Below are positions 26,458 to 39,551 of a stretch of 64,000 nucleotides of DNA, piece by piece; position 1 is the first letter of the stretch, and each line of letters starts with the position of its first letter. The stretch is from Cyanobacteria bacterium P01_A01_bin.123 (GTDB lineage: Bacteria; Cyanobacteriota; Cyanobacteriia; Phormidesmidales; Phormidesmidaceae), in NCBI GenBank assembly GCA_039815185.1, contig JBCBZT010000023.1, positions 1-64,000 on the forward strand. Reading direction: 5' to 3'. Both the position numbers and the translations under genes were made by a program. The notes under the pieces were generated by a model, which saw only the letters and a program-made list of their open reading frames with translations, was not told the origin of the DNA and made no database searches.

Positions 26458-28857
26458 ATGCAAAAGCATAATCCTAGGAGCAGCGCTGATGTAGATACAG
26501 CACAGGTGAACCCGGGTTATCCCCTGTTCCAAATTGCTAAGGCACTAACGACGGCAGAACACCACGAAGACCCGGCCACTCGCGAGCGTGCCCAACAGCG
26601 GATCGTGAAATGGACAGCAGTGCTGAACGGGCTCCTGAATGGAACCGTGGATGTGGGTTCGCGATCGCCGCTCGAAGGTGTTCCCAATTGGGTGACGCTC
26701 GAAGTTGTCACAGGCGGTTTTGCCACTGGGCAGTTGATGGCGGGTGGGCCGCTGCTTGAACACGAGTTAGCCTTATTGGCCGAATTACCAGGCAAGTCAG
26801 AAGCCGATGGACGGCGCGCACTCAATGGATACTTCGTCACCGATGAGGGGCTCGATAGACTGCAACGACTGCTCCAGTCAGGTTGCTACGAGGTTACCAT
26901 TCCTGAAGAGGGGGCGCTGCTCGTTGTTGCCTGGCTGGTGCACCAGGGCTATGCAGATCAGGCGCGGGAGCTGTTAGCCCAGTTAGCACCGTGGTTTTCA
27001 AGGCTGCGGTTCTATCCCATACCCACCGATCGTCCCTGTCGCTTGGGTTCCCAGGTGTGCTTGCAAACTGTCGGCAATACGGTTGCCAGTCTTAAGCAGA
27101 TCGAACCTAACCCCCACATCTTGGCCCAGAAGGAAGCGGTGAATGTTTGGGCACCGCTCTATGATCGAACGGTTAGCCTGTTTATAGAGACAGTTGAAGG
27201 GGATACGCCCCATCTGCAATGTGACCGAGAGGGTCGTTGGGTACACTCGCCAGACGGCAAATTCCCTGTTGAAGGGGGCTGGCCCTGCCGCCAGTATCCT
27301 GGAGGTTGGCAGGCCCGCGCCAAGGGCTTGCTAAACGAGTATAAGCAGCAGCGGAGTCGGTATACACTTTGTGGAAAACCCGAACGCAAAAAAGAGAGCT
27401 TTTACCAGCTACGGAAATTCTTAAGGCAGATTTTGCGGGATCCTCAATCTCTGAGTGGTCGTGACGTAGGGCGGATCAGGCTGATTTTGGCTCGTTATGT
27501 GACGAAACGGGGTGTACCTGGTTCGCCACAGTGCAGTGCGGTTCGCGAACGGCAGACTCAACAAGTCAAGGCACCCACTTTTCAGGAAATTGCTGAAATC
27601 GTGATTCGACGGTTGGCAGCTTATCCCCTAAAAGACGGTCTCGATGACATTCGTCCGGTTGTTCAACCCGTTACCGATGTAGAGGCGAGGCAATGGCAAG
27701 TTGAAGCGAGAACATCCGTGGCGCGATCGCTGCAACGAAAGGTAGAGCGCTGCCTGCGAGAGACGGTGGAAGTACTGGTAGAACGAGGCATGATCACCTC
27801 GGGTGAAACGTTAGCTCGAGTGCTGCCTCAGATCACCTCAGAGATCAGAGCTGCGGGCGTTACTGAACCCACGCTGCGTCAGCTGTATGCTTCACTCTAC
27901 CGAGCTTTTAGACGGCGGCGATCGCTGCTGTTACTCAACTTAGAAAAGCAGATTCAGATTGAGGAATTGCCTTGGGTGGCTGCCATCGATCGCTTTCGCA
28001 GCGACAACCTCTCAGCTAGAGAATTGGCGAGACAGACCCTTGAGGAGATAACGCGCTTAACCCTAACGTCTTTTCCCCATGCCATTCTCCCGAATAAGCT
28101 GCTCCAAGAACTACGAGCCCTTGCGAAGACAGCGATGTTCGATCTACCGCTCGTAGATGAAGTTGCGGCGGATATCTTCATGGGGACATTCTCCAACAAG
28201 TTCCTCAATGCGGCGAAGCGGGCTGCTGATTTCCTGGAAGGCACGCTGTATGCAACCTATTACGGCATCGACTATCAGCAAGTGCGGGCGATTCCAGACA
28301 GCCAATCAGCGCAACGGTCGTGGTTCCGGAAAAACCATCATGATCCGTTTATGGCTCTCTGCGAATCAAGGGCAGGTGTTCGTTATGGCAGCTGGGATCC
28401 AGCGATCAACGGCATGATCATCGAGCAACAACAAATCCTGACGTCGCAGAATCTAGCGGTGCTATTTTCGGGTCTCGATCTGATCGATGCGCTAGAAGAT
28501 CAATTGGCCGATTTGGCTCGCCGCTGCTTCACCTGGATTTGTAAACGCTTGCAGATGAAAACTGACAACTGGCATGCCCAACTTATCCAAGTCAAAAATA
28601 CGGCTTATGCCTGGCGGCAAATGGTCTTTTTCTTATCTCTCTTGTCAAATCAGCAAATAGGCGATTTCCTCAACTGGGCAGAAGCATACCTGGCTAAACA
28701 ACCCGCGAAATTTCAAAATCGCTTTCGCCCTGCCCTGAGGGGGCTTGTGCTGGCTACGGCTGGCTGCTCAATTGAAGAGAATGCTGTAAATCATCTAAAT
28801 GCCTACCGTTTTACGGGTTGGTCTAAAAAGAGACATTGGCTGCTGACTGACACTTAA
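26458..28857 (+). CDS. Large hypothetical protein (799 aa), no domain recognised
   Basis: Long ORF starting 21 nt after the tRNA-like CCA; motif-like blocks RAFRRRRSLLLLNL, ADIFMGTFS, IEQQQILT, KNTAYAWRQM. Confidence 0.85.
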   Translation: MQKHNPRSSADVDTAQVNPGYPLFQIAKALTTAEHHEDPATRERAQQRIVKWTAVLNGLLNGTVDVGSRSPLEGVPNWVTLEVVTGGFATGQLMAGGPLLEHELALLAELPGKSEADGRRALNGYFVTDEGLDRLQRLLQSGCYEVTIPEEGALLVVAWLVHQGYADQARELLAQLAPWFSRLRFYPIPTDRPCRLGSQVCLQTVGNTVASLKQIEPNPHILAQKEAVNVWAPLYDRTVSLFIETVEGDTPHLQCDREGRWVHSPDGKFPVEGGWPCRQYPGGWQARAKGLLNEYKQQRSRYTLCGKPERKKESFYQLRKFLRQILRDPQSLSGRDVGRIRLILARYVTKRGVPGSPQCSAVRERQTQQVKAPTFQEIAEIVIRRLAAYPLKDGLDDIRPVVQPVTDVEARQWQVEARTSVARSLQRKVERCLRETVEVLVERGMITSGETLARVLPQITSEIRAAGVTEPTLRQLYASLYRAFRRRRSLLLLNLEKQIQIEELPWVAAIDRFRSDNLSARELARQTLEEITRLTLTSFPHAILPNKLLQELRALAKTAMFDLPLVDEVAADIFMGTFSNKFLNAAKRAADFLEGTLYATYYGIDYQQVRAIPDSQSAQRSWFRKNHHDPFMALCESRAGVRYGSWDPAINGMIIEQQQILTSQNLAVLFSGLDLIDALEDQLADLARRCFTWICKRLQMKTDNWHAQLIQVKNTAYAWRQMVFFLSLLSNQQIGDFLNWAEAYLAKQPAKFQNRFRPALRGLVLATAGCSIEENAVNHLNAYRFTGWSKKRHWLLTDT

Positions 28858-31695: not shown

Positions 31696-34128
31696 TTGGG
31701 CACTCTAAGCTTAAATGTTGGTGTTACCAACGATTGTTTGAGGGGACTTTTCCTGTTGACAGAACCTGCCTTGATCAAAGGGAACACCTCGAGCGCAAAA
31801 GTTTGGGGCCAATTTATTTTGGCGATTGCCACTGCCCAGTCTGAGCTGGCGCTGTGTCATGCTGTGGCAGACTATTTGCCCCAGTTTATCCCTGCTGATC
31901 GGGTTAGCGTTACGCGCTTAATATCAGACGGTAAAGCCTTTGAAGTTTTCGTAGTCAATGGTGAAAAACAGGTTTTAGCTGAGGGAGAACAACTCCCATT
32001 TGATCAAGTCAATCTGCAAGCGGTGATCAAAACCCAGCGGCCCCATTTAACTCAGATCCATCCAGATAGCCCCTATTTAGATCTTGCTGAACTTGCAAAG
32101 CAAGGCATTGTGATGACCATCTCTGTTCCGCTAAACGTTTTAGGGCAGACGATCGGATCATTAAATGTGGCAGCTAAAACAATGCTCCTCGACCATCCTG
32201 ACATCATTGAACTGATAGAACAGATTGCCACGCTCCTGGCGATGAACTTGGAGCGGCAGTCTTTATACGATCAAACCCAATTTGCTATGGAGCGTTATCG
32301 TTCCTATACCGACCAACTGCGCATCCTCAATGAAATCGGTTGTCAATTATCTGCTGCGGTCACTAAAGCTGAGGTATTTGACACAATTTCCCAGGCAATT
32401 TCTCAAGTCATAAATGTCGATCGAGTCAGCTATGCAGTGCCGATGGATGATGTACAGGGGTTTCAGATCTTTCGTTTTTCGGGTAACAACTATATCCCGA
32501 CAGATATCGTCATTCCAGCGGCTGGATCAGGGTTAGAGCACACTTATCAAACTGGACGACCGACATTCTTTGACTTAAGCGATCAGCGATATAGTGAACA
32601 TCGGATCTTGGCTAGCTTTGGCCTTAAAGTGGGTTGGAGCGTGCCGGTTCGCATCTCAAACCAAATTATTGGTATTTTGAATGCAGCCTCTTCTCGTACC
32701 GATTTAGATGGGCAAGAACAGCTCGATCTACTGACAACCCTGGGTGGCCTGATGGGGGCAACCCTTGAGCGCATTGCTGTGCAAGATGAGGCCGCCATGA
32801 TCCTCAAGGAAATTGCTTACCAGGCCCGCTATGATACCCTAACAAATTTACCCAATCGCGCCCTTTTTTACCAACAGCTTGAAGATGCACTGGCGGCAGG
32901 CCAGTCAAATGATCAGCAGCTAGCGGTGCTTTTTATCGATTTAGATCGGTTCAAGCATATTAATGACACGCTGGGTCATACGATTGGCGATAAGCTCTTG
33001 TGTGCGATCGCTAAGCAACTACAGCAAATTTTTCCCTCATCAGATACTGTGGCTCGCTTGGGCGGAGATGAATTTGTCGTATTGTTACCCCAGATTAACC
33101 ACCCGCAAGCAGTTGCCCAAACCGCTCAGACGATTCTGACTGCGCTAGAGACGCCTTTGCAGGTTGATGGACACAGTATTTTCTTGGGAGGAAGTATTGG
33201 CATTAGTCTATTTCCTGCTCATGGGACGACCCCCGGTACGCTGATGAAACATGCTGATATCGCGATGTATCATGCGAAGGAACAGGGGCGTAATAACTAT
33301 CAATTTTATGATGCTAAATTATCGACTCGGCTACAGCGACGAATTGCCATTGAGCACGCCCTCCGCGATGCGATCGCTAATGATGAACTATCTTTGGTCT
33401 TCCATCCCCAGATTTGCTTAACCTCAGGCAATATCGAAGGCTTAGAAGCATTAGTTCGCTGGAAAAATTCAGCATTGGGCTCTATTCACCCAGATCAATT
33501 TATCCCAATTGCAGAAGAAAGCGGTTTAATTGAAGCATTGTCTGATTGGGTATTGGATCAGAGCTTGGACACAATTAAGCGACTTAGAAGAAGTCATCCC
33601 GAATTGTACGTTGCTGTTAATTTCTCGGCCCAAGAATTTTCTAGCGTCACCTCTTTTCTGAATCGAGTGATAACGACCCTAAGAAAACACCAACTCCCCG
33701 CTAGCGCTTTGGAACTAGAAATTACGGAAAGTGTTTTTTTGCAAGCAGAAGCGACGACTAAACAGCTTATGCAAGCCCTGAAAGCCGAAGGGATACGCAT
33801 CGCAATTGATGATTTTGGGACTGGATTCTCCTCACTCTCTTATTTAGTGAATCTGCCCCTTGATATCCTCAAAATCGATCGGTCATTTATCCATCGTCTT
33901 GGGCATGATCCTCGTAACGATGGTATTGTTCGCGGCACCATTGAAATTGCCAAGAGCCTTGGAATGGCTTGTGTAGCTGAGGGGGTTGAAACGCTGGAGC
34001 AACTATCACAGTTGCAACAGTTAGGATGTCAATGCTGTCAGGGGTTTTTGTTTAGCAAGCCCGTACCTGCTAGTGAACTCGACGCCCTGCTGCAACAAGA
34101 TCTCAATCCCCTAATGACGACATCCTAA
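31696..34128 (+). CDS. GAF-GAF-GGDEF-EAL protein
   Basis: Two GAF-like repeats; DTLTNLPNR, RLGGDEF, EALVRW, DDFGTGFSS; start may be the later TTG near 31755. Confidence 0.92.
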   Translation: MGTLSLNVGVTNDCLRGLFLLTEPALIKGNTSSAKVWGQFILAIATAQSELALCHAVADYLPQFIPADRVSVTRLISDGKAFEVFVVNGEKQVLAEGEQLPFDQVNLQAVIKTQRPHLTQIHPDSPYLDLAELAKQGIVMTISVPLNVLGQTIGSLNVAAKTMLLDHPDIIELIEQIATLLAMNLERQSLYDQTQFAMERYRSYTDQLRILNEIGCQLSAAVTKAEVFDTISQAISQVINVDRVSYAVPMDDVQGFQIFRFSGNNYIPTDIVIPAAGSGLEHTYQTGRPTFFDLSDQRYSEHRILASFGLKVGWSVPVRISNQIIGILNAASSRTDLDGQEQLDLLTTLGGLMGATLERIAVQDEAAMILKEIAYQARYDTLTNLPNRALFYQQLEDALAAGQSNDQQLAVLFIDLDRFKHINDTLGHTIGDKLLCAIAKQLQQIFPSSDTVARLGGDEFVVLLPQINHPQAVAQTAQTILTALETPLQVDGHSIFLGGSIGISLFPAHGTTPGTLMKHADIAMYHAKEQGRNNYQFYDAKLSTRLQRRIAIEHALRDAIANDELSLVFHPQICLTSGNIEGLEALVRWKNSALGSIHPDQFIPIAEESGLIEALSDWVLDQSLDTIKRLRRSHPELYVAVNFSAQEFSSVTSFLNRVITTLRKHQLPASALELEITESVFLQAEATTKQLMQALKAEGIRIAIDDFGTGFSSLSYLVNLPLDILKIDRSFIHRLGHDPRNDGIVRGTIEIAKSLGMACVAEGVETLEQLSQLQQLGCQCCQGFLFSKPVPASELDALLQQDLNPLMTTS

Positions 34129-34139
34129 GCCCTCTCTAA

Positions 34140-35864
34140 ATGCGTTTTTCTCGTTTTGCTCAATGCTGGGTGTGCTTCGTTTTGTCACTGCTGTTGGTGA
34201 GCGGTTGTCATCGCTGTTTGAATCGCCCGGCTTCATCCCTTTCGGTGGTAGAACCGCCTATTGTGACTCCAGAAGTACTGGCTGGGCATACCCTGGTGCC
34301 CTTGGTTCAGCCAGGGCCTTGGCCCGATATCACAGGTTTGATTGGCTACGGCGATCGCCTCTGGTTTGCTAATAGTGTTGCTTTTGGCAATCATAATTCT
34401 GCAGATGTTTACAGCTACGCGCCAGCAACTGGGCAAACGCGCTACGAACGGCATCTTTTTAGTCAAAGTGTCGGCAAGCCAGCCGTGGCGGATGGATTGC
34501 TGTACTGGCCTTTTGAAGATCCTCGGTTTTCTGCTGACTTAGGCGAGTATATGGTTACTAACGGAGAAGACTGGCAATGGCGTCTCTTCCCTAATGGTGA
34601 AGCGTTTCACGTTCATACCATGGCTGCTCAAGGTGACTCGCTATTTGCAGGGACGGGTGCTTGGGCGGGTAGATTGCAGCGATCGCAAGATGGGGGGCAA
34701 ACCTGGCAAGTCATCTACGAGCACCCCACTCCAGACAGACAGGTTAGCCGTGTCACCCAACTAGCTGTGCTAGACGAGCAGCTGTATGTCGGCATCACTG
34801 CCCGCCAAGAAGCTGGTATCAAACTCCTGCGGTGGGATCAAGAGATGCTCCAAACGATTGACAGCTGGCCTAGGGGTAAACGTGTCAGTGATTTAACCAC
34901 CTATGATGGCTGGCTATACGGGATTAATCTGAATCCAGACGATAGCACTGCCATCTGGCGCACCCATGACCAGCAGACTGAACCAGTGGAAGCGTTAAAC
35001 GGTTATCCCATAAGGGCATTAGCTGCTGGTTCAGATGCTCTGTGGGCAGTGAGCAGCAATGAGGCAGGCGGATTTCTTTGGCATAGTTCAGATGGCGTAG
35101 CGTGGACTGCTGCCCAGCAGTTCCAGACATTGCGACCGCTGGATGTTGCCGTCTATGCTGGCAACGTCTACGTGGGGGCAAGGGATGAAGGTGGGCGCGG
35201 TGTTTTATTAGGGCCAACTGCTCCAGAGAGCGCTGGTGAAGCAACTTCGACACAAATGCCAACTATCCAGGCTGTATCCCCATCTCCCCAGCAGTTGCAA
35301 GCCATGCTGAATCAGCTAGATGAGGTGATGGCAAATCGCTCAAGCTACGCCAATGGCAACACCCAAGATGTGCTGTCTCAGACGTTAAAACCCCTTGCTA
35401 TCAGCAGTATGCCAGAGGTTGGCGAAGCCCTATCACAGCGTTTAGGCCACTCACCCCCGCAGGTGGATGCAACGCTATTCGACGATGTTGTTACAGAACC
35501 CGCGACAGATGTGCTGCAGTGGTACTTGCTTTGGGCGATCGCTCTGAATGGTCACGGTCAGATTCCAGTTGAGCTGCTGGCTATCCCTTGGACAACCCCC
35601 AGTAACTCTCGAGAAAAGTATTGGCAACCCGTTCCTGCTGCTGCTTGGGCCGTTGCTCAATTAGGTCAAGCCGATGTTGAGACCCTAGCCGCCTTAATCA
35701 ATCGCCTCAGCTTCAAAGATGATCCCATTTGGCTCAAAGGCGATTTTATTGGGGCCTTGAGTGCGTTAACGGGCGAACAATTTGGCTACGATCAGGGCGC
35801 CTGGCAAACCTGGTGGGCACAGCAAGCTAACGATTTCCTTAACGGGGTCTCAGCCTTAAGCTGA
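34140..35864 (+). CDS. Putative lipoprotein with beta-propeller-like repeats and a helical C-terminal domain
   Basis: Lipobox-like LLVSGC; Asp-box-like SQDGGQTW and SSDGVAW. Confidence 0.7.
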   Translation: MRFSRFAQCWVCFVLSLLLVSGCHRCLNRPASSLSVVEPPIVTPEVLAGHTLVPLVQPGPWPDITGLIGYGDRLWFANSVAFGNHNSADVYSYAPATGQTRYERHLFSQSVGKPAVADGLLYWPFEDPRFSADLGEYMVTNGEDWQWRLFPNGEAFHVHTMAAQGDSLFAGTGAWAGRLQRSQDGGQTWQVIYEHPTPDRQVSRVTQLAVLDEQLYVGITARQEAGIKLLRWDQEMLQTIDSWPRGKRVSDLTTYDGWLYGINLNPDDSTAIWRTHDQQTEPVEALNGYPIRALAAGSDALWAVSSNEAGGFLWHSSDGVAWTAAQQFQTLRPLDVAVYAGNVYVGARDEGGRGVLLGPTAPESAGEATSTQMPTIQAVSPSPQQLQAMLNQLDEVMANRSSYANGNTQDVLSQTLKPLAISSMPEVGEALSQRLGHSPPQVDATLFDDVVTEPATDVLQWYLLWAIALNGHGQIPVELLAIPWTTPSNSREKYWQPVPAAAWAVAQLGQADVETLAALINRLSFKDDPIWLKGDFIGALSALTGEQFGYDQGAWQTWWAQQANDFLNGVSALS

Positions 35865-37014
35865 TATGCACTAGATTTCGGAGTGGCTCAGGGGCAGTTG
35901 GATGAAGAATCTGGGTAATGGATTGAAAACCACTGGATGCATCCGGATAGACAAATGTTGATGCTTCTTGTTCGGCAACATACGCATAGATAGCCAGTTC
36001 TTCAAGCAAATATATGCATGATCGATTGACGTAATAGTCAAAACGTTGGGAATCTTGTTGAAGATACCTCTTAACAAAGACGTCAGCAAAGTTACGAACA
36101 GCAGTAGAAAAAGTTTTGTCAGCTTCAAATAGCCATCGTATCTCTTCAGCATAAGCTTGGAATTTCTCCTCAGCCAAGACATCAGAGAAGAATCGCATTT
36201 CGAAGCAACAGTGATCTGCATATCGATCAAAGATAGATAATTTCTCATCTCTGATTTTACGTCCAAAACTGATTGCACGATTTAAAGCATGCTGTTCTGA
36301 AAAACCTTGCATTTCTAAAACAATTTGATAGGCAAGATCACCGATTAAAACCTGGCAGTTGGAAAAATTCTGACTAATCCACTCAGTCATTCCTGCCAGC
36401 TTGGCCGTTGTAAAGTTCTTATCTTGCAAACTGAAGCCTAACATACAGGTCTCGTACTTTTGCAGTTGCCCCAAAGCCGATTCAGGCTTAACGGTAACGA
36501 CTTGGGCTTCATATCGAGCACTGGTTTTAATTTCAATATTTTGATGAGGTTTAGCCACACATCGGTAATCTTCAAAGCTCATGCGAATCCGCTGAGCTTG
36601 AGATTGAACACAGAAGGAAATTTCTTGAAAAATATGTAACTCTTGGGTGAAAAATACTTCTAAGTTAAACAGGCACCCCAACGGTGGTAAAGTACCTATT
36701 TCATAATCAGGAAACAACTTCTGAGTTTGGCCTTTGCCTACAAAATCGATGTTGGGATTATTGAGAGAAACCCGTAGCGAGTCTAACTCGATTTTACGCG
36801 TAACAGGCACCACAATCATCGCATATCGATTGGGAGCAGTGCAGATCAGGACTGCTTCAATTAGCTCATAACCTAGGGAAAACTCATCAACCGCAATATC
36901 TTGGAGCGTGTAAGCTGGTGAGTAGGAAACCGTGAGATATCGTATTTTCTGGCTATCTAACAAATCCTTGATAGGGTCAAGCGCATTTGTTTTAGAGAGT
37001 GCAAAAGCTGCCAT
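35839..37014 (-). CDS. YbaK/ProX-like domain fused to a tRNA-dependent cyclodipeptide synthase (CDPS)-like domain
   Basis: N-terminal FPDYEIGTLPPLG and EISF...IRMSFEDY; C-terminal CMLGFS, VLIGD, YLLEELA, FVYP. Confidence 0.75.
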   Translation of the reverse strand: MAAFALSKTNALDPIKDLLDSQKIRYLTVSYSPAYTLQDIAVDEFSLGYELIEAVLICTAPNRYAMIVVPVTRKIELDSLRVSLNNPNIDFVGKGQTQKLFPDYEIGTLPPLGCLFNLEVFFTQELHIFQEISFCVQSQAQRIRMSFEDYRCVAKPHQNIEIKTSARYEAQVVTVKPESALGQLQKYETCMLGFSLQDKNFTTAKLAGMTEWISQNFSNCQVLIGDLAYQIVLEMQGFSEQHALNRAISFGRKIRDEKLSIFDRYADHCCFEMRFFSDVLAEEKFQAYAEEIRWLFEADKTFSTAVRNFADVFVKRYLQQDSQRFDYYVNRSCIYLLEELAIYAYVAEQEASTFVYPDASSGFQSITQILHPTAPEPLRNLVHISLRLRPR

Positions 37015-37134
37015 AGGAAAGACTCTTTCGATTTAGATAGCTAGATAGAACGATTTGACTATCACACTAGTCCAATTTTTCCCATTCCAACGATGTAATT
37101 AACGATTCTATTCGAGGCACTGCCGACCGTCCCC

Positions 37135-37179
37135 GGAAATTTAGGATCAAACTGCTAAAAGTCTTAATCCTAAATTTCC
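37135..37179. repeat. 13-bp perfect inverted repeat (possible terminator of the AKR gene, or operator)
   Basis: GGAAATTTAGGAT-N19-ATCCTAAATTTCC. Confidence 0.7.
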
Positions 37180-37207
37180 TCTGCTCTGTTTAGTTTAACG
37201 ATGACCG

Positions 37208-38158
37208 TTATGCCCAGAAACCACTGCCTTGGTATGTCACGCCGGGGATAAACCAACTTTGAGGATTGACGTAGCGAAAGCGGATATCAACCTCGTCGAT
37301 CGCAGCTCGGGCTTTGGTTGAAAGGTCATGGGATGCAGCCACAAGATTTTGAGCGATGCGGTCTGGATTAGTTGATTTAGGAATAACACTTGTTCCCCGG
37401 TGAATCGCCCAGGCGATGAGGAGTTGTGCAGGCGTTAGCCCTTCGTCGCTGGCAACAGACTTGACCCGATCATTTTCTAGCACGGGGGGCTCGTCACTGG
37501 CTTTCATGCTGTCGGGGCGATCGCGAGAGCCCAGGGGTGAGTATGCCGTCAAGTGGATGCCTTGATCTTGGCAGTAGGCTAGCAGTTCGTTTTGGGGGTT
37601 GTAGGGATGCAGTTCCACTTGGTTGACAGCTGGAGTGGCGCCACTCTCTGTGATCAACTGATCGAGCTTTGAGATACTGAAATTAGAAACCCCGACACTT
37701 TTCACCAGTCCTTTGTCGCGGAGCTTCAGCATGGCCTCAAAGGTTTTGGATAAAGGCATGTCAGGTAAGGGCCAAAATCCTTCTGCATCCTCCGGCATGA
37801 CTAAGCCGGGACGAAAGGCGACGGGCCAATGCATGAGATACAAGTCGATATAGTCAAGACCGAAGGCGGTAAGCGTTGCCTGACAGCCCGCCTCAACATC
37901 ATCGGGGGCGTGGAAACTGTTCCAAAGTTTAGAGGTGACAAAGACGTCTTCGCGGGTGACGTTACCGTCTGCAATAGATTCGCAAATGGCGCGACCCACC
38001 TCTTTTTCGTTGCCATAGATCCAAGCGCCGTCGATATGGTGGTAACCAATGCGGAGGGCTTCTTTGACGGCTTGATAGGCGTCCCCTTCGTGGGACTTCC
38101 AGGTGCCGAGACCGAAAGCAGGAATTGTGTTGCCGTCATTGAGGGTAAATGTCTTCAT
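37208..38158 (-). CDS. Aldo/keto reductase
   Basis: GLGTW, IDGAWIYGNE, TSKLW, DLYLMHWP, GVSNF, AYSPLGS, IPKS. Confidence 0.96.
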   Translation of the reverse strand: MKTFTLNDGNTIPAFGLGTWKSHEGDAYQAVKEALRIGYHHIDGAWIYGNEKEVGRAICESIADGNVTREDVFVTSKLWNSFHAPDDVEAGCQATLTAFGLDYIDLYLMHWPVAFRPGLVMPEDAEGFWPLPDMPLSKTFEAMLKLRDKGLVKSVGVSNFSISKLDQLITESGATPAVNQVELHPYNPQNELLAYCQDQGIHLTAYSPLGSRDRPDSMKASDEPPVLENDRVKSVASDEGLTPAQLLIAWAIHRGTSVIPKSTNPDRIAQNLVAASHDLSTKARAAIDEVDIRFRYVNPQSWFIPGVTYQGSGFWA

Positions 38159-38264
38159 GAGTCCTCTTTGAGATGTGTAGACTGTGGGCCAAATAATTGA
38201 GGAAATAGGCTCCAGTCCTCAATGCTTTCAAGCTCATTTAGCTTAACGTCTAGATTAGTTGCAG

Positions 38265-38388
38265 CTAGGGGCTGTCATCAATATTGCTTTTAGAACAATG
38301 GTTACAGTCCCCTAGCTCGTTGAGTTGGGTCGGGCATGGCAAGGCTCAACCATAGGGCTTTTCGGGTTGAGTTGATGACATGCCCTAG
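38265..38388. mobile_element. 124-bp MITE-like element
   Basis: Terminal inverted repeats CTAGGGGCTGTCATCAA / TTGATGACATGCCCTAG (15/17) with internal hairpins. Confidence 0.6.
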
Positions 38389-39551
38389 ACGGTGGACAGG
38401 GGAATACCGTCAAATCGATTCAGGGCGACTAGTGTCAGACTGAGCAGTGGCACTATCATCCAAGGCGGTAAGCCTGCGCCCATGGGGATCAGGCATAGTG
38501 CGAAAAATGCCAAAAGCGATCGCGCGATGATGACCCCCTCAGGCAAACAATTTGGCGACGCCCATTGCAGTGCTGTGACGCCAGTCAGAAAAACGGCAAT
38601 TCCACCGCAGAGAATCGTGCGAGCTTCTGCAATGAAGCTATGTCCAGAGGCTGCCTCAATGGCAAACTGGATGCCAATACCCGTGGCGACAATGCCCATA
38701 AAGACGAGAACGTGGCTGTAGCCATAGATATAAGACCGCAGCAATGCCAACCGACCGCCTCGCAATGCCCAGTTGATCACCGATTCATCTGCCCGTTCAA
38801 AATACATCCACCACAGACTGACGGCGGTCAAAAAGCCGCCCATGCCAGTCAAGACACTTTGCCACTGCCAATTAGTTTGGGCCACGCCTGTGGTGACTGC
38901 AATAATGGCTTCCCCCAGCACGATAATCACAAACAAGCCAAATCGCTCGTCCATGTGGGATTTCTGGGTGGGGACGTTGCGAATGGTGAGGTAGGTGATG
39001 GGGCCGTTGCTGATTTCAATCAGTAATGCGATCGCCCACAGCCAAAATCGAGCTGGTTCAGGTACTGCAATGGATAGGAGCCATAGCAAAAACGCGATAG
39101 AGAAACTGGTGATGTATCGCGCGGTAAGTTCTCTAGATTGGGGCACAAACCGCCAGGCTTGGGTGTACAAAACAATAATTACCAACCGTAGCGTGCTGTA
39201 AATGGCGGCAAAGTTAGCTGAACCCCCTTGTAGGGCATCGTGAATGGTCAGGGCCATCACCACCAGCCCAAACATCACACCCAGCATGACAAGACGATAA
39301 GGCCCCCGGTCAACGTCAAACTGATCGGCGTAGTAGCTAAAGTCGATCCAAAGCCACCATACCGGAACAAAGAGCGCTGCGAAGCCTGCAATTCCTGTCC
39401 AGCTTAAGTCGCCATGGAGGAGATGGGCTAATTCTGCGATCGCGAACACAAACACCAGATCAAAAAACAGTTCCAGCCAAGTGGCATGGCGAGTTTCCTC
39501 ACGGTCTTTACCCAGATGCAGCCGCAGTGGATGAGAACGTTGACGGGTCAT
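38385..39551 (-). CDS. ltrA: Low temperature requirement protein A family
   Basis: ATWLELFFDLVFVFAI and HMDERFGLFVIIVLGE signatures. Confidence 0.9.
   Translation of the reverse strand: MTRQRSHPLRLHLGKDREETRHATWLELFFDLVFVFAIAELAHLLHGDLSWTGIAGFAALFVPVWWLWIDFSYYADQFDVDRGPYRLVMLGVMFGLVVMALTIHDALQGGSANFAAIYSTLRLVIIVLYTQAWRFVPQSRELTARYITSFSIAFLLWLLSIAVPEPARFWLWAIALLIEISNGPITYLTIRNVPTQKSHMDERFGLFVIIVLGEAIIAVTTGVAQTNWQWQSVLTGMGGFLTAVSLWWMYFERADESVINWALRGGRLALLRSYIYGYSHVLVFMGIVATGIGIQFAIEAASGHSFIAEARTILCGGIAVFLTGVTALQWASPNCLPEGVIIARSLLAFFALCLIPMGAGLPPWMIVPLLSLTLVALNRFDGIPLSTV

Follow-up and report, generated by a model that had tools for sequence, protein, structure and literature searches.

Cyclodipeptide synthases (CDPSs) draw charged tRNA away from the ribosome, and to our knowledge both their control in cells and the role of untailored cyclodipeptides are largely open. 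Here we analyzed a 64,000-nucleotide stretch of DNA (the window; positions 1 to 64,000 of contig JBCBZT010000023.1, GenBank assembly GCA_039815185.1) from Cyanobacteria bacterium P01_A01_bin.123, in which one gene encodes a CDPS preceded by a domain resembling the tRNA-editing protein YbaK. The closest described relatives of the synthase half belong to the BcmA or cLI/cLL group of XYP enzymes, represented by SsBcmA (PDB 9J61; PMC11580168; PMC5816076, supplement 4), with which it has the fold, the Ser/Tyr/Glu/Tyr residues and the XYP motif in common. In XYP enzymes the first CDPS strands bind the tRNA acceptor stem, and β2 and β7 bind tRNA (PMC7566563). The N-terminal half has its fold and GxxxP loop in common with the INS trans-editing domains (YbaK, 1DBU and 2DXA; ProXp-ala; the INS domain of ProRS). 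A strictly conserved lysine of these domains is required for deacylation in every member tested, and its replacement by Ala cripples all of them; the lysine is proposed to touch the C75–A76 phosphate and to steer the CCA end, and catalysis is substrate-assisted via the A76 2′-OH (PMC10164551).

A YbaK/INS-fold domain is fused to an XYP cyclodipeptide synthase

The window protein is called P0001. Its gene and the parts discussed below are:

35839..37014, minus strand: whole gene (ORF, open reading frame), YbaK-like domain plus XYP CDPS, 391 residues (Pfam, NCBIfam)
36541..36987, minus strand: YbaK/INS-fold domain, residues ∼10–158, lpg1207 (3OP6)-like (Pfam, PDB sequence match, structure alignment)
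36856..36858, minus strand: codon of E53, at the conserved INS lysine position (alignments)
35842..36519, minus strand: CDPS domain, residues 166–391, BcmA-like (Pfam, NCBIfam, PDB match, structure alignment)
35932..35949, minus strand: rebuilt pocket-entrance loop Y356-P-D-A-S-S361, clade consensus Y-P-G-x-[FLI]-x (clade alignment)

An initial annotation of this DNA had placed a YbaK/ProX-type domain in the first ∼160 residues and a CDPS-like domain in the last ∼230. Neither domain failed when we compared both with profiles and structures, and all motifs it had quoted are present. The Pfam family tRNA_edit (PF04073) matched residues 50–149 with 32.7 bits (cut-off 25.5), and the best PDB sequence match of residues 14–156 was the YbaK-like protein 3OP6 (E 6.2e-20). 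Structure alignment with 3OP6 (VIA-align) gave a Z of 20.4 and a root mean square deviation (rmsd) of 2.2 over 147 aligned residues, and Foldseek searches with the P0001 model also matched the YbaK-type structures 3OP6, 1DBU and 2DXA. The motifs LIEAVLI (51–57) and FPDYEIGTLPPLG (101–113) lie in this domain. P0001 scored only 15.4 bits against the YbaK/EbsC Cys-tRNA(Pro) deacylase equivalog TIGR00011 (cut-off 153.25).

For the C-terminal half, the CDPS family PF16715 matched residues 185–357 (47.2 bits, cut-off 27) and TIGR04539 scored 81.5 bits (cut-off 45). The best PDB sequence match of residues 166–391 was SsBcmA (9J61, E 1.7e-36), which was also matched by structure with the Rossmann CDPS fold (Foldseek E 1.9e-19; VIA-align Z 30.2, rmsd 1.7, 215 aligned). 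The motifs LGFS (192–195), YLLEELA (335–341) and VYP (355–357) include the intact catalytic tetrad S195/Y335/E339/Y356, and the XYP motif is D198-Y356-P357. All 31 fused proteins whose CDPS domain is complete likewise retain the tetrad. An AlphaFold2 model of P0001 built on 40 aligned sequences had a pLDDT of 91 and a pTM of 0.88; since the latter spans both domains, it would fit a defined arrangement. Taken together, P0001 is a fusion of a YbaK/INS-fold domain with an XYP CDPS closest to BcmA. By every sequence criterion it is an XYP-subfamily member and may form cyclodipeptides.

The conserved INS lysine is replaced by an acidic residue

The N-terminal domain of P0001 keeps the GxxxP/GxxPP loop (G107-T-L-P110-P111) but is altered at three positions: Glu replaces Lys at 53, Tyr replaces His at 31 and Gln replaces His at 139. 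E53, within LIEAVLI, aligns with the Lys of the YbaK that the host has itself and with the KT motif of 1DBU, 2DXA and the ProRS INS domain, so the lysine is indeed replaced, as the initial annotation had suspected. The host's YbaK is separate and canonical (TIGR00011 171.8 bits, cut-off 153).

We compared this column across all distinct loci with enough of the N-domain present, 26 fused and 9 stand-alone. The fused loci had E in 20, D in 3, and K, Q and A in one each, while the stand-alone loci had K in 9 of 9. In a hand-picked core the residue was acidic in 20/20 fused proteins and K in 12/12 stand-alone domains. A wider set comprised 45 proteins taken as fused, hand-picked among those with a region of 95–175 residues ahead of the CDPS; here 22 N-termini were acidic and nine had Lys, several of the latter in poorly aligned, decayed domains. 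Two His common in the stand-alone group (12/12 and 10/12) are mostly replaced in fused proteins.

By the conserved-lysine criterion P0001 is thus not an INS deacylase, despite its INS fold and GxxxP loop. Because the lysine is proposed to contact the CCA end, its fixed change to Glu or Asp should also weaken canonical tRNA binding. This reversal argues against an editing filter and against canonical tRNA recruiting, the two roles proposed in the initial annotation: the domains and the loss of the lysine stand, but the function built on them holds poorly. A filter would need a working deacylase, yet the lysine is lost and the two His are mostly lost, and the further suggestion that the domain binds rather than hydrolyzes does not follow when the same lysine is the proposed contact to the C75–A76 phosphate (PMC10164551).

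A low-sensitivity search for the Glu-type domain as a short protein on its own gave five candidates, none significant. Other YbaK-like proteins in the set (P0059, P0080, P0109, P0132) have two or three tandem YbaK-like domains, all with Lys, and include a Usp-YbaK fusion.

Fused relatives recur patchily and often adjoin SIR2-like and STAND genes

A survey of the architecture, which the initial annotation had proposed, showed the YbaK-CDPS fusion to recur patchily in cyanobacteria, proteobacteria and metagenomes. It also brought out what that annotation did not contain: the SIR2-like/STAND-WD40 or signaling contexts of the relatives, sister CDPSs with cyclic nucleotide monophosphate (cNMP)-binding or receiver domains, and the deviant pocket entrance of P0001. 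A word search found seven further full-length fusions at 37–69% identity, and a profile search many more. Named Methylococcaceae, Nostocaceae and Zetaproteobacteria genomes supplied eight loci and metagenomes 17, to which genome samples were added. The Nostocaceae sample held 11 fusions in 10 of 351 genomes, and in the sample of the order around the Methylococcaceae locus L002 the fusion was seen in 5 of 351.

A SIR2-like gene lies within two genes of the fusion in 15 of the 26 fused loci (9 Nostocaceae loci, 5 from soil, and L013). In most of these an nSTAND1-WD40 gene is present as well, and the gene order differs between lineages. L016, L024 and L025, which start at a contig edge, also have a SIR2-like gene and were left out of this count. 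The Nostocaceae cassette reads metallophosphoesterase-SIR2-like gene, nSTAND1-WD40 gene, fusion, and a small membrane protein lies at one end or the other; 9 of the 11 Nostocaceae fusions come after the SIR2-like and nSTAND1-WD40 genes, and reciprocally 9 of 10 close SIR2-like orthologues are accompanied by the fusion. In the five soil loci the partner is SIR2-like-TIR, plus STAND-WD40 where the contig extends that far. Among the remaining 11 loci, at least three of which end early at contig edges, a GGDEF-EAL or hybrid kinase gene stands directly upstream in L002, L004 and L008. Conserved tailoring genes were found in none of the 26 fused loci, and eight more distant SIR2-like and STAND pairs had a CDPS in none. 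No PADLOC model matched P0001, and the cassette partners gave partial-domain matches only.

Several neighbors of these loci are worth recording. In two Methylococcaceae (L002:5404-8759, L004:6535-9825) a PAS-GGDEF-EAL gene and the fusion separate the gene for the binding protein of a peptide ABC transporter from that for its permease. The small membrane protein (L003:11456-11977, with orthologues in 10 Nostocaceae cassettes) has no Pfam family and switches cassette ends; an Atlas look-up returned unnamed clusters and one RipA/8xMP lead at 0.90, below the recognition mark. Active SIR2 domains have a catalytic His (KLHG). The SIR2-like partners L005:4832-5950 and L019:7124-8200 read KLYG or KLNG and might lack activity or not act as NADases. 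In Nostocaceae, stand-alone CDPSs that belong to another group (L089-L096, L033) are repeatedly flanked by TerB-like genes, and two distant CDPSs (L026:5328-7815, L027:2145-3516) have an HTH_3 gene ahead, one of them with a long unannotated C-terminal extension (613 residues).

In four related Nostocaceae, whose pairs are among the eight more distant ones, the SIR2-like and nSTAND1-WD40 genes are followed by a precursor-like ORF of 90–99 residues and a GrrM/OscB cyclophane radical-SAM maturase, a module that occupies the slot held by the CDPS fusion in the close cassette:

L117:9117-10590, L118:10022-11487, L129:8487-9952, L130:4109-5577: precursor-like ORF plus GrrM/OscB maturase (maturase 552 bits for L117)

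Extra domains also occur on other CDPSs. Among 72 scanned matches, 19 are CDPS-like proteins that end in a cNMP-binding domain at the C-terminus, and two have a receiver domain. The cNMP-fused, BcmA-related clade (P0055, P0058, P0063, P0079 and 15 others) has the tetrad intact in 18 of 19 and looks like a cyclic-nucleotide-gated CDPS. The receiver proteins P0071 and P0076 are ∼700 residues long and consist of the receiver domain, a middle part without assignment, a YbaK remnant and the CDPS.

A disarmed editing domain may gate the synthase

The reading we favor, at a little under an even chance, is that the disarmed editing domain has been retained for regulation or docking and gates a BcmA-clade XYP CDPS used as an output. 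The N-domain, held by a short linker beside the first CDPS strands, would make synthesis conditional on a partner protein or ligand, and the fused family would be a switchable output of signaling or conflict circuits. That output could be a signal in the form of a diketopiperazine that contains leucine, or it could drain charged tRNA. The reading rests on the fixed charge reversal with the fold kept, the partner genes, the short tether near the tRNA-binding region and the precedent of SadB, which is compared below. The canonical YbaK elsewhere in the host, the intact tetrad, selection on the N-domain (see below) and the sister CDPSs with cNMP-binding or receiver domains also speak for it. The regulatory role is a prediction, as are the gating step, its input and the product. 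A complex prediction of the N-domain with the CDPS domain scored 0.32 (control 0.48); it gave no verdict and was not used as evidence.

A more specific proposal, which we regard as rather unlikely, makes the fusion the enzymatic arm of an undescribed NLR-like circuit, in which a STAND-WD40 sensor, directly or via its SIR2-like partner, would unlock the CDPS through the disarmed domain, the result being a cyclic dipeptide that diffuses as an alarm, or a drain on charged tRNA that stalls translation. BcmA would then have descended by domain loss, and the P0001 gene would be a detached, re-specified copy. That a radical-SAM cyclophane peptide pathway takes the same slot in another Nostocaceae lineage suggests that cyclic peptides may be a general output.

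Several observations weigh against gating. The surroundings of P0001 contain no SIR2-like and STAND-WD40 cassette and no signaling gene linked on its strand, and a homologue of the SIR2-like partner is absent from its genome at E ≤ 1e-5 (the genome has six nSTAND1 matches, all on other contigs). The loci with the cassette come from three interrelated lineages of a sister subclade, so their counts are not independent, and G544 has the cassette without a CDPS. Across the full set of 231 pairs the N-domain lags behind the CDPS domain in conservation (34 versus 42% identity, N-domain higher in 37 pairs only), and on other branches it is decayed with the GxxxP loop lost, as expected of a dispensable vestige. 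P0001 deviates at 11 of 41 conserved CDPS columns and P0002, its close fused relative, at 17, the two highest of 59 rows, including positions where the SsBcmA variants G208A and F210A were inactive (PMC11580168). Finally, the CDPSs fused to cNMP-binding domains are a clade of their own and carry the additional domain at the opposite end, which makes them an analogy rather than a domain swap.

An alternative, which we consider unlikely, sees in the N-domain the structural remains of an old fusion, which would pack on and stabilize the CDPS without carrying a signal and are being lost lineage by lineage. The decay is graded over the 45 fused N-termini, with remnants that still match by profile (hhalign 70–96%), and BcmA-type enzymes, which function without the N-domain, are nested among the fusions. 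All trees were quick trees. In a 132-row tree the cLI/cLL lineage (P0023, P0038) was sister (support 99) to fusions with a decayed YbaK domain, and both sat inside a larger fusion-rich group. Forcing all fusions together was 44 log units worse (approximately unbiased [AU] test, p 0.034, on 48 rows chosen after seeing the first tree). This suggests that BcmA arose from a fusion by domain loss, although the test is post hoc and repeated fusion is compatible with it. The decayed sisters of the BcmA clade are P0022, P0028, P0031, P0032, P0034 and P0036, and the pocket motifs of P0034 are identical to those of SsBcmA.

Against a vestige stand a lysine position that is acidic in 23/26 loci rather than random, and the kept GTLPP. 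P0001 groups (SH-aLRT 96) with Methylococcaceae and P0005/P0006 proteins, all without the cassette, and the cassette loci belong to a sister group. Within the subclade the N-domain is more conserved than the enzyme (P0001 versus P0002, 80% identity in the N-domain and 62% in the CDPS domain). For six of seven pairs dS was finite, and in these the dN/dS of the N-domain was 0.11–0.34, comparable with that of the CDPS domain. By these measures the N-domain in P0001's part of the family is under purifying selection and not junk.

It is improbable that the N-domain recruits tRNA, or aids competition with EF-Tu, via a surface outside the canonical CCA pocket. Its RNA-binding ancestry and a tether that would lie close to the tRNA-binding strands speak for this, as do basic residues conserved in fused proteins (K94 in 13/20, R144 in 14/20). 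Set against them are the reversal of the CCA-binding lysine and a net acidic charge (−5 in P0001, median −4 in the 45 fused proteins), though the stand-alone relatives are acidic too (median −7).

No better placed, in our view, is the possibility that P0001 is a pseudo-CDPS, its synthesis lost or marginal, acting as a binding or sensor protein with the N-domain as its main functional part. Its pockets read MGLGFIYF (P1) and FVFRDSS (P2), against FGLGCIFM and FDYKGFS in SsBcmA, and fail the cLI/cLL motifs FGLGC[IV]F[MF] and Fx[YF]xGF[SG]. The SsBcmA pocket residues (PMC11580168) were mapped by eye from the PDB sequence alignment; for P0023 and P0038 this mapping yields the motifs published for the Streptomyces and Hahella entries. 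The deviations counted above include Gly358Asp, at a position that is Gly in 56/57 clade rows with Asp only in P0001 and P0002, Ser at the position of SsBcmA F210, and GDSIHR changed to GDLAYQ. The orphan context of the gene points the same way, as does the finding that all four substitutions in two close variants fall in the CDPS domain. On the other side, tetrad and XYP motif are kept in both P0001 and P0002 at 62% identity, the loop YPDASSGFQ is identical in the two, related strains have the reading frame undisrupted, and XYP enzymes from other groups are active with Tyr, Thr, Ile, Ser, Glu or Arg at the P2 position in question (PMC5816076, supplement 4). The kept loop and these non-Gly enzymes are compatible with re-specification as well as with loss of activity.

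Under the favored gating reading, we put the chance that P0001 is still active at about one in two. As the tetrad is intact and many fused relatives carry the exact cLI/cLL P1 motif FGLGC[IV]FM, a leucine-containing product is likely for the family; with its rebuilt pocket, the product of P0001 is probably not cyclo(Ile-Leu).

Least probable is an active editing filter that hydrolyzes unwanted aminoacyl-tRNA and sharpens product specificity: the fold and GxxxP loop are intact, INS catalysis is substrate-assisted and some fused proteins keep the lysine (e.g., P0016; 9 of the 45 rows, several poorly aligned), but P0001 has Glu where even Ala cripples all members tested (PMC10164551), both His are replaced, and hydrolysis of correctly charged tRNA would be wasteful.

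The gene is a foreign-looking orphan in its genome

The P0001 gene overlaps the 3′ end of a convergent, beta-propeller-like gene by 26 bp, and an aldo-keto reductase gene lies 193 bp upstream on the same strand (both by Pfam). A desaturase-like gene is ∼4 kb away and the nearest 2OG-Fe(II) oxygenase ∼9 kb. No tailoring gene adjoins P0001, in agreement with the initial annotation, and the adjacent tailoring oxygenases of a bicyclomycin-type cluster are missing. The aldo-keto reductase, desaturase-like and 2OG oxygenase genes were not seen adjoining fused relatives in the loci scanned. On the related contig X5, ∼96% identical over 32002–38221, the frame is kept without gaps, and contigs from other runs place the gene at the same spot, which shows that it is no assembly artefact.

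The gene is AT-rich, as had been stated: its GC content is 41.2% where the genome has 50.2%, which places it in the lowest 2.5% among 6807 windows of the same length, and its GC content at third codon positions (GC3) is 0.37 against a median of 0.54 (lowest 3% of 2863 long ORFs). It was not found in 60 related genomes, and no such fusion was seen in 400 further genomes of the phylum sample. Composition and absence together fit horizontal gain. The gene does lack a HIP1 site, but so do 29% of same-length genome windows; this absence is therefore uninformative, and we rejected it as a mark of foreign origin. No empty integration site was seen among the contigs of four runs, where the gene was present wherever the region was covered, and in five relatives the flank genes of P0001 were found only apart from each other. 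A promoter and terminator scan at P0001 gave scores below shuffle levels. We conclude that the gene is a foreign-looking orphan of a sister subclade that lacks the SIR2-like/STAND cassette.

Elsewhere in the window, 26458–28857 (plus strand) holds a 799-residue ORF with no Pfam or PADLOC match and a higher GC content at its 5′ end. A short intergenic stretch (38283–38389) matches several other contigs and is probably a dispersed repeat or small mobile element.

Comparison with known systems

Neither the fusion nor the cassette is described in the literature we consulted, including PMC2922099, PMC11610984, PMC5816076, PMC5767969, PMC8195603 and PMC12803255 as far as these sources were accessible; a mention may exist in subscription papers or in the FASTA supplement of PMC5816076. 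Members of the fused family may already be listed without comment in the 2018 table (PMC5816076, supplement 4), where Nostoc and Methylococcaceae entries have P1 motifs equal to those of the fused L085 and L088, a match by P1 motif only. Methylovulum CDPS 91 was considered as a characterized fusion and found unsupported, its pocket motifs differing from all fused rows.

CDPS fusions have been described with a C-terminal methyltransferase, P450 or ABC transporter (NYH) and with an uncharacterized C-terminal domain (cAA) (PMC5816076, PMC5767969). These are multidomain like P0001, but their partners are C-terminal and serve tailoring or export, and the accessible parts of these papers mention no N-terminal editing-like domain. 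Compared with SsBcmA, P0001 has the extra N-terminal domain and no oxygenase cluster. Among INS proteins its N-domain is nearest to the uncharacterized lpg1207-like group (3OP6), with ∼30% identity to stand-alone members, from which it differs in having Glu for Lys, both group-typical His replaced and a synthase fused.

A precedent for a regulatory YbaK-like domain is SadB of Pseudomonas (PMC12075610), a regulatory protein in which a YbaK-like N-domain, combined with HDOD, is a protein-binding adaptor; its partner domain is another one than a CDPS, and the likeness to the P0001 subgroup is one of architecture and not of homology comparison. The nSTAND1/WD40 NLR-like conflict systems of multicellular bacteria (PMC8195603, PMC12803255) resemble the surroundings of P0001's relatives, which adjoin nSTAND1-WD40 and SIR2-like-TIR or metallophosphoesterase genes; P0001 itself is without the cassette, and the main texts of these papers, in the parts available, name no CDPS or YbaK partner.

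Set beside these systems, the fusion is a real and apparently undescribed variant of a known enzyme family, built from two known domains, with P0001 as an odd, orphaned member. A dead editing domain on a CDPS, together with links to NLR-like and signaling genes, would allow both the regulation of a CDPS and the use of cyclodipeptides as outputs in conflict or signaling to be tested directly. It would also extend the INS family to uses outside proofreading and offer an origin for the bicyclomycin synthase, while P0001 provides a naturally rebuilt pocket for specificity studies.

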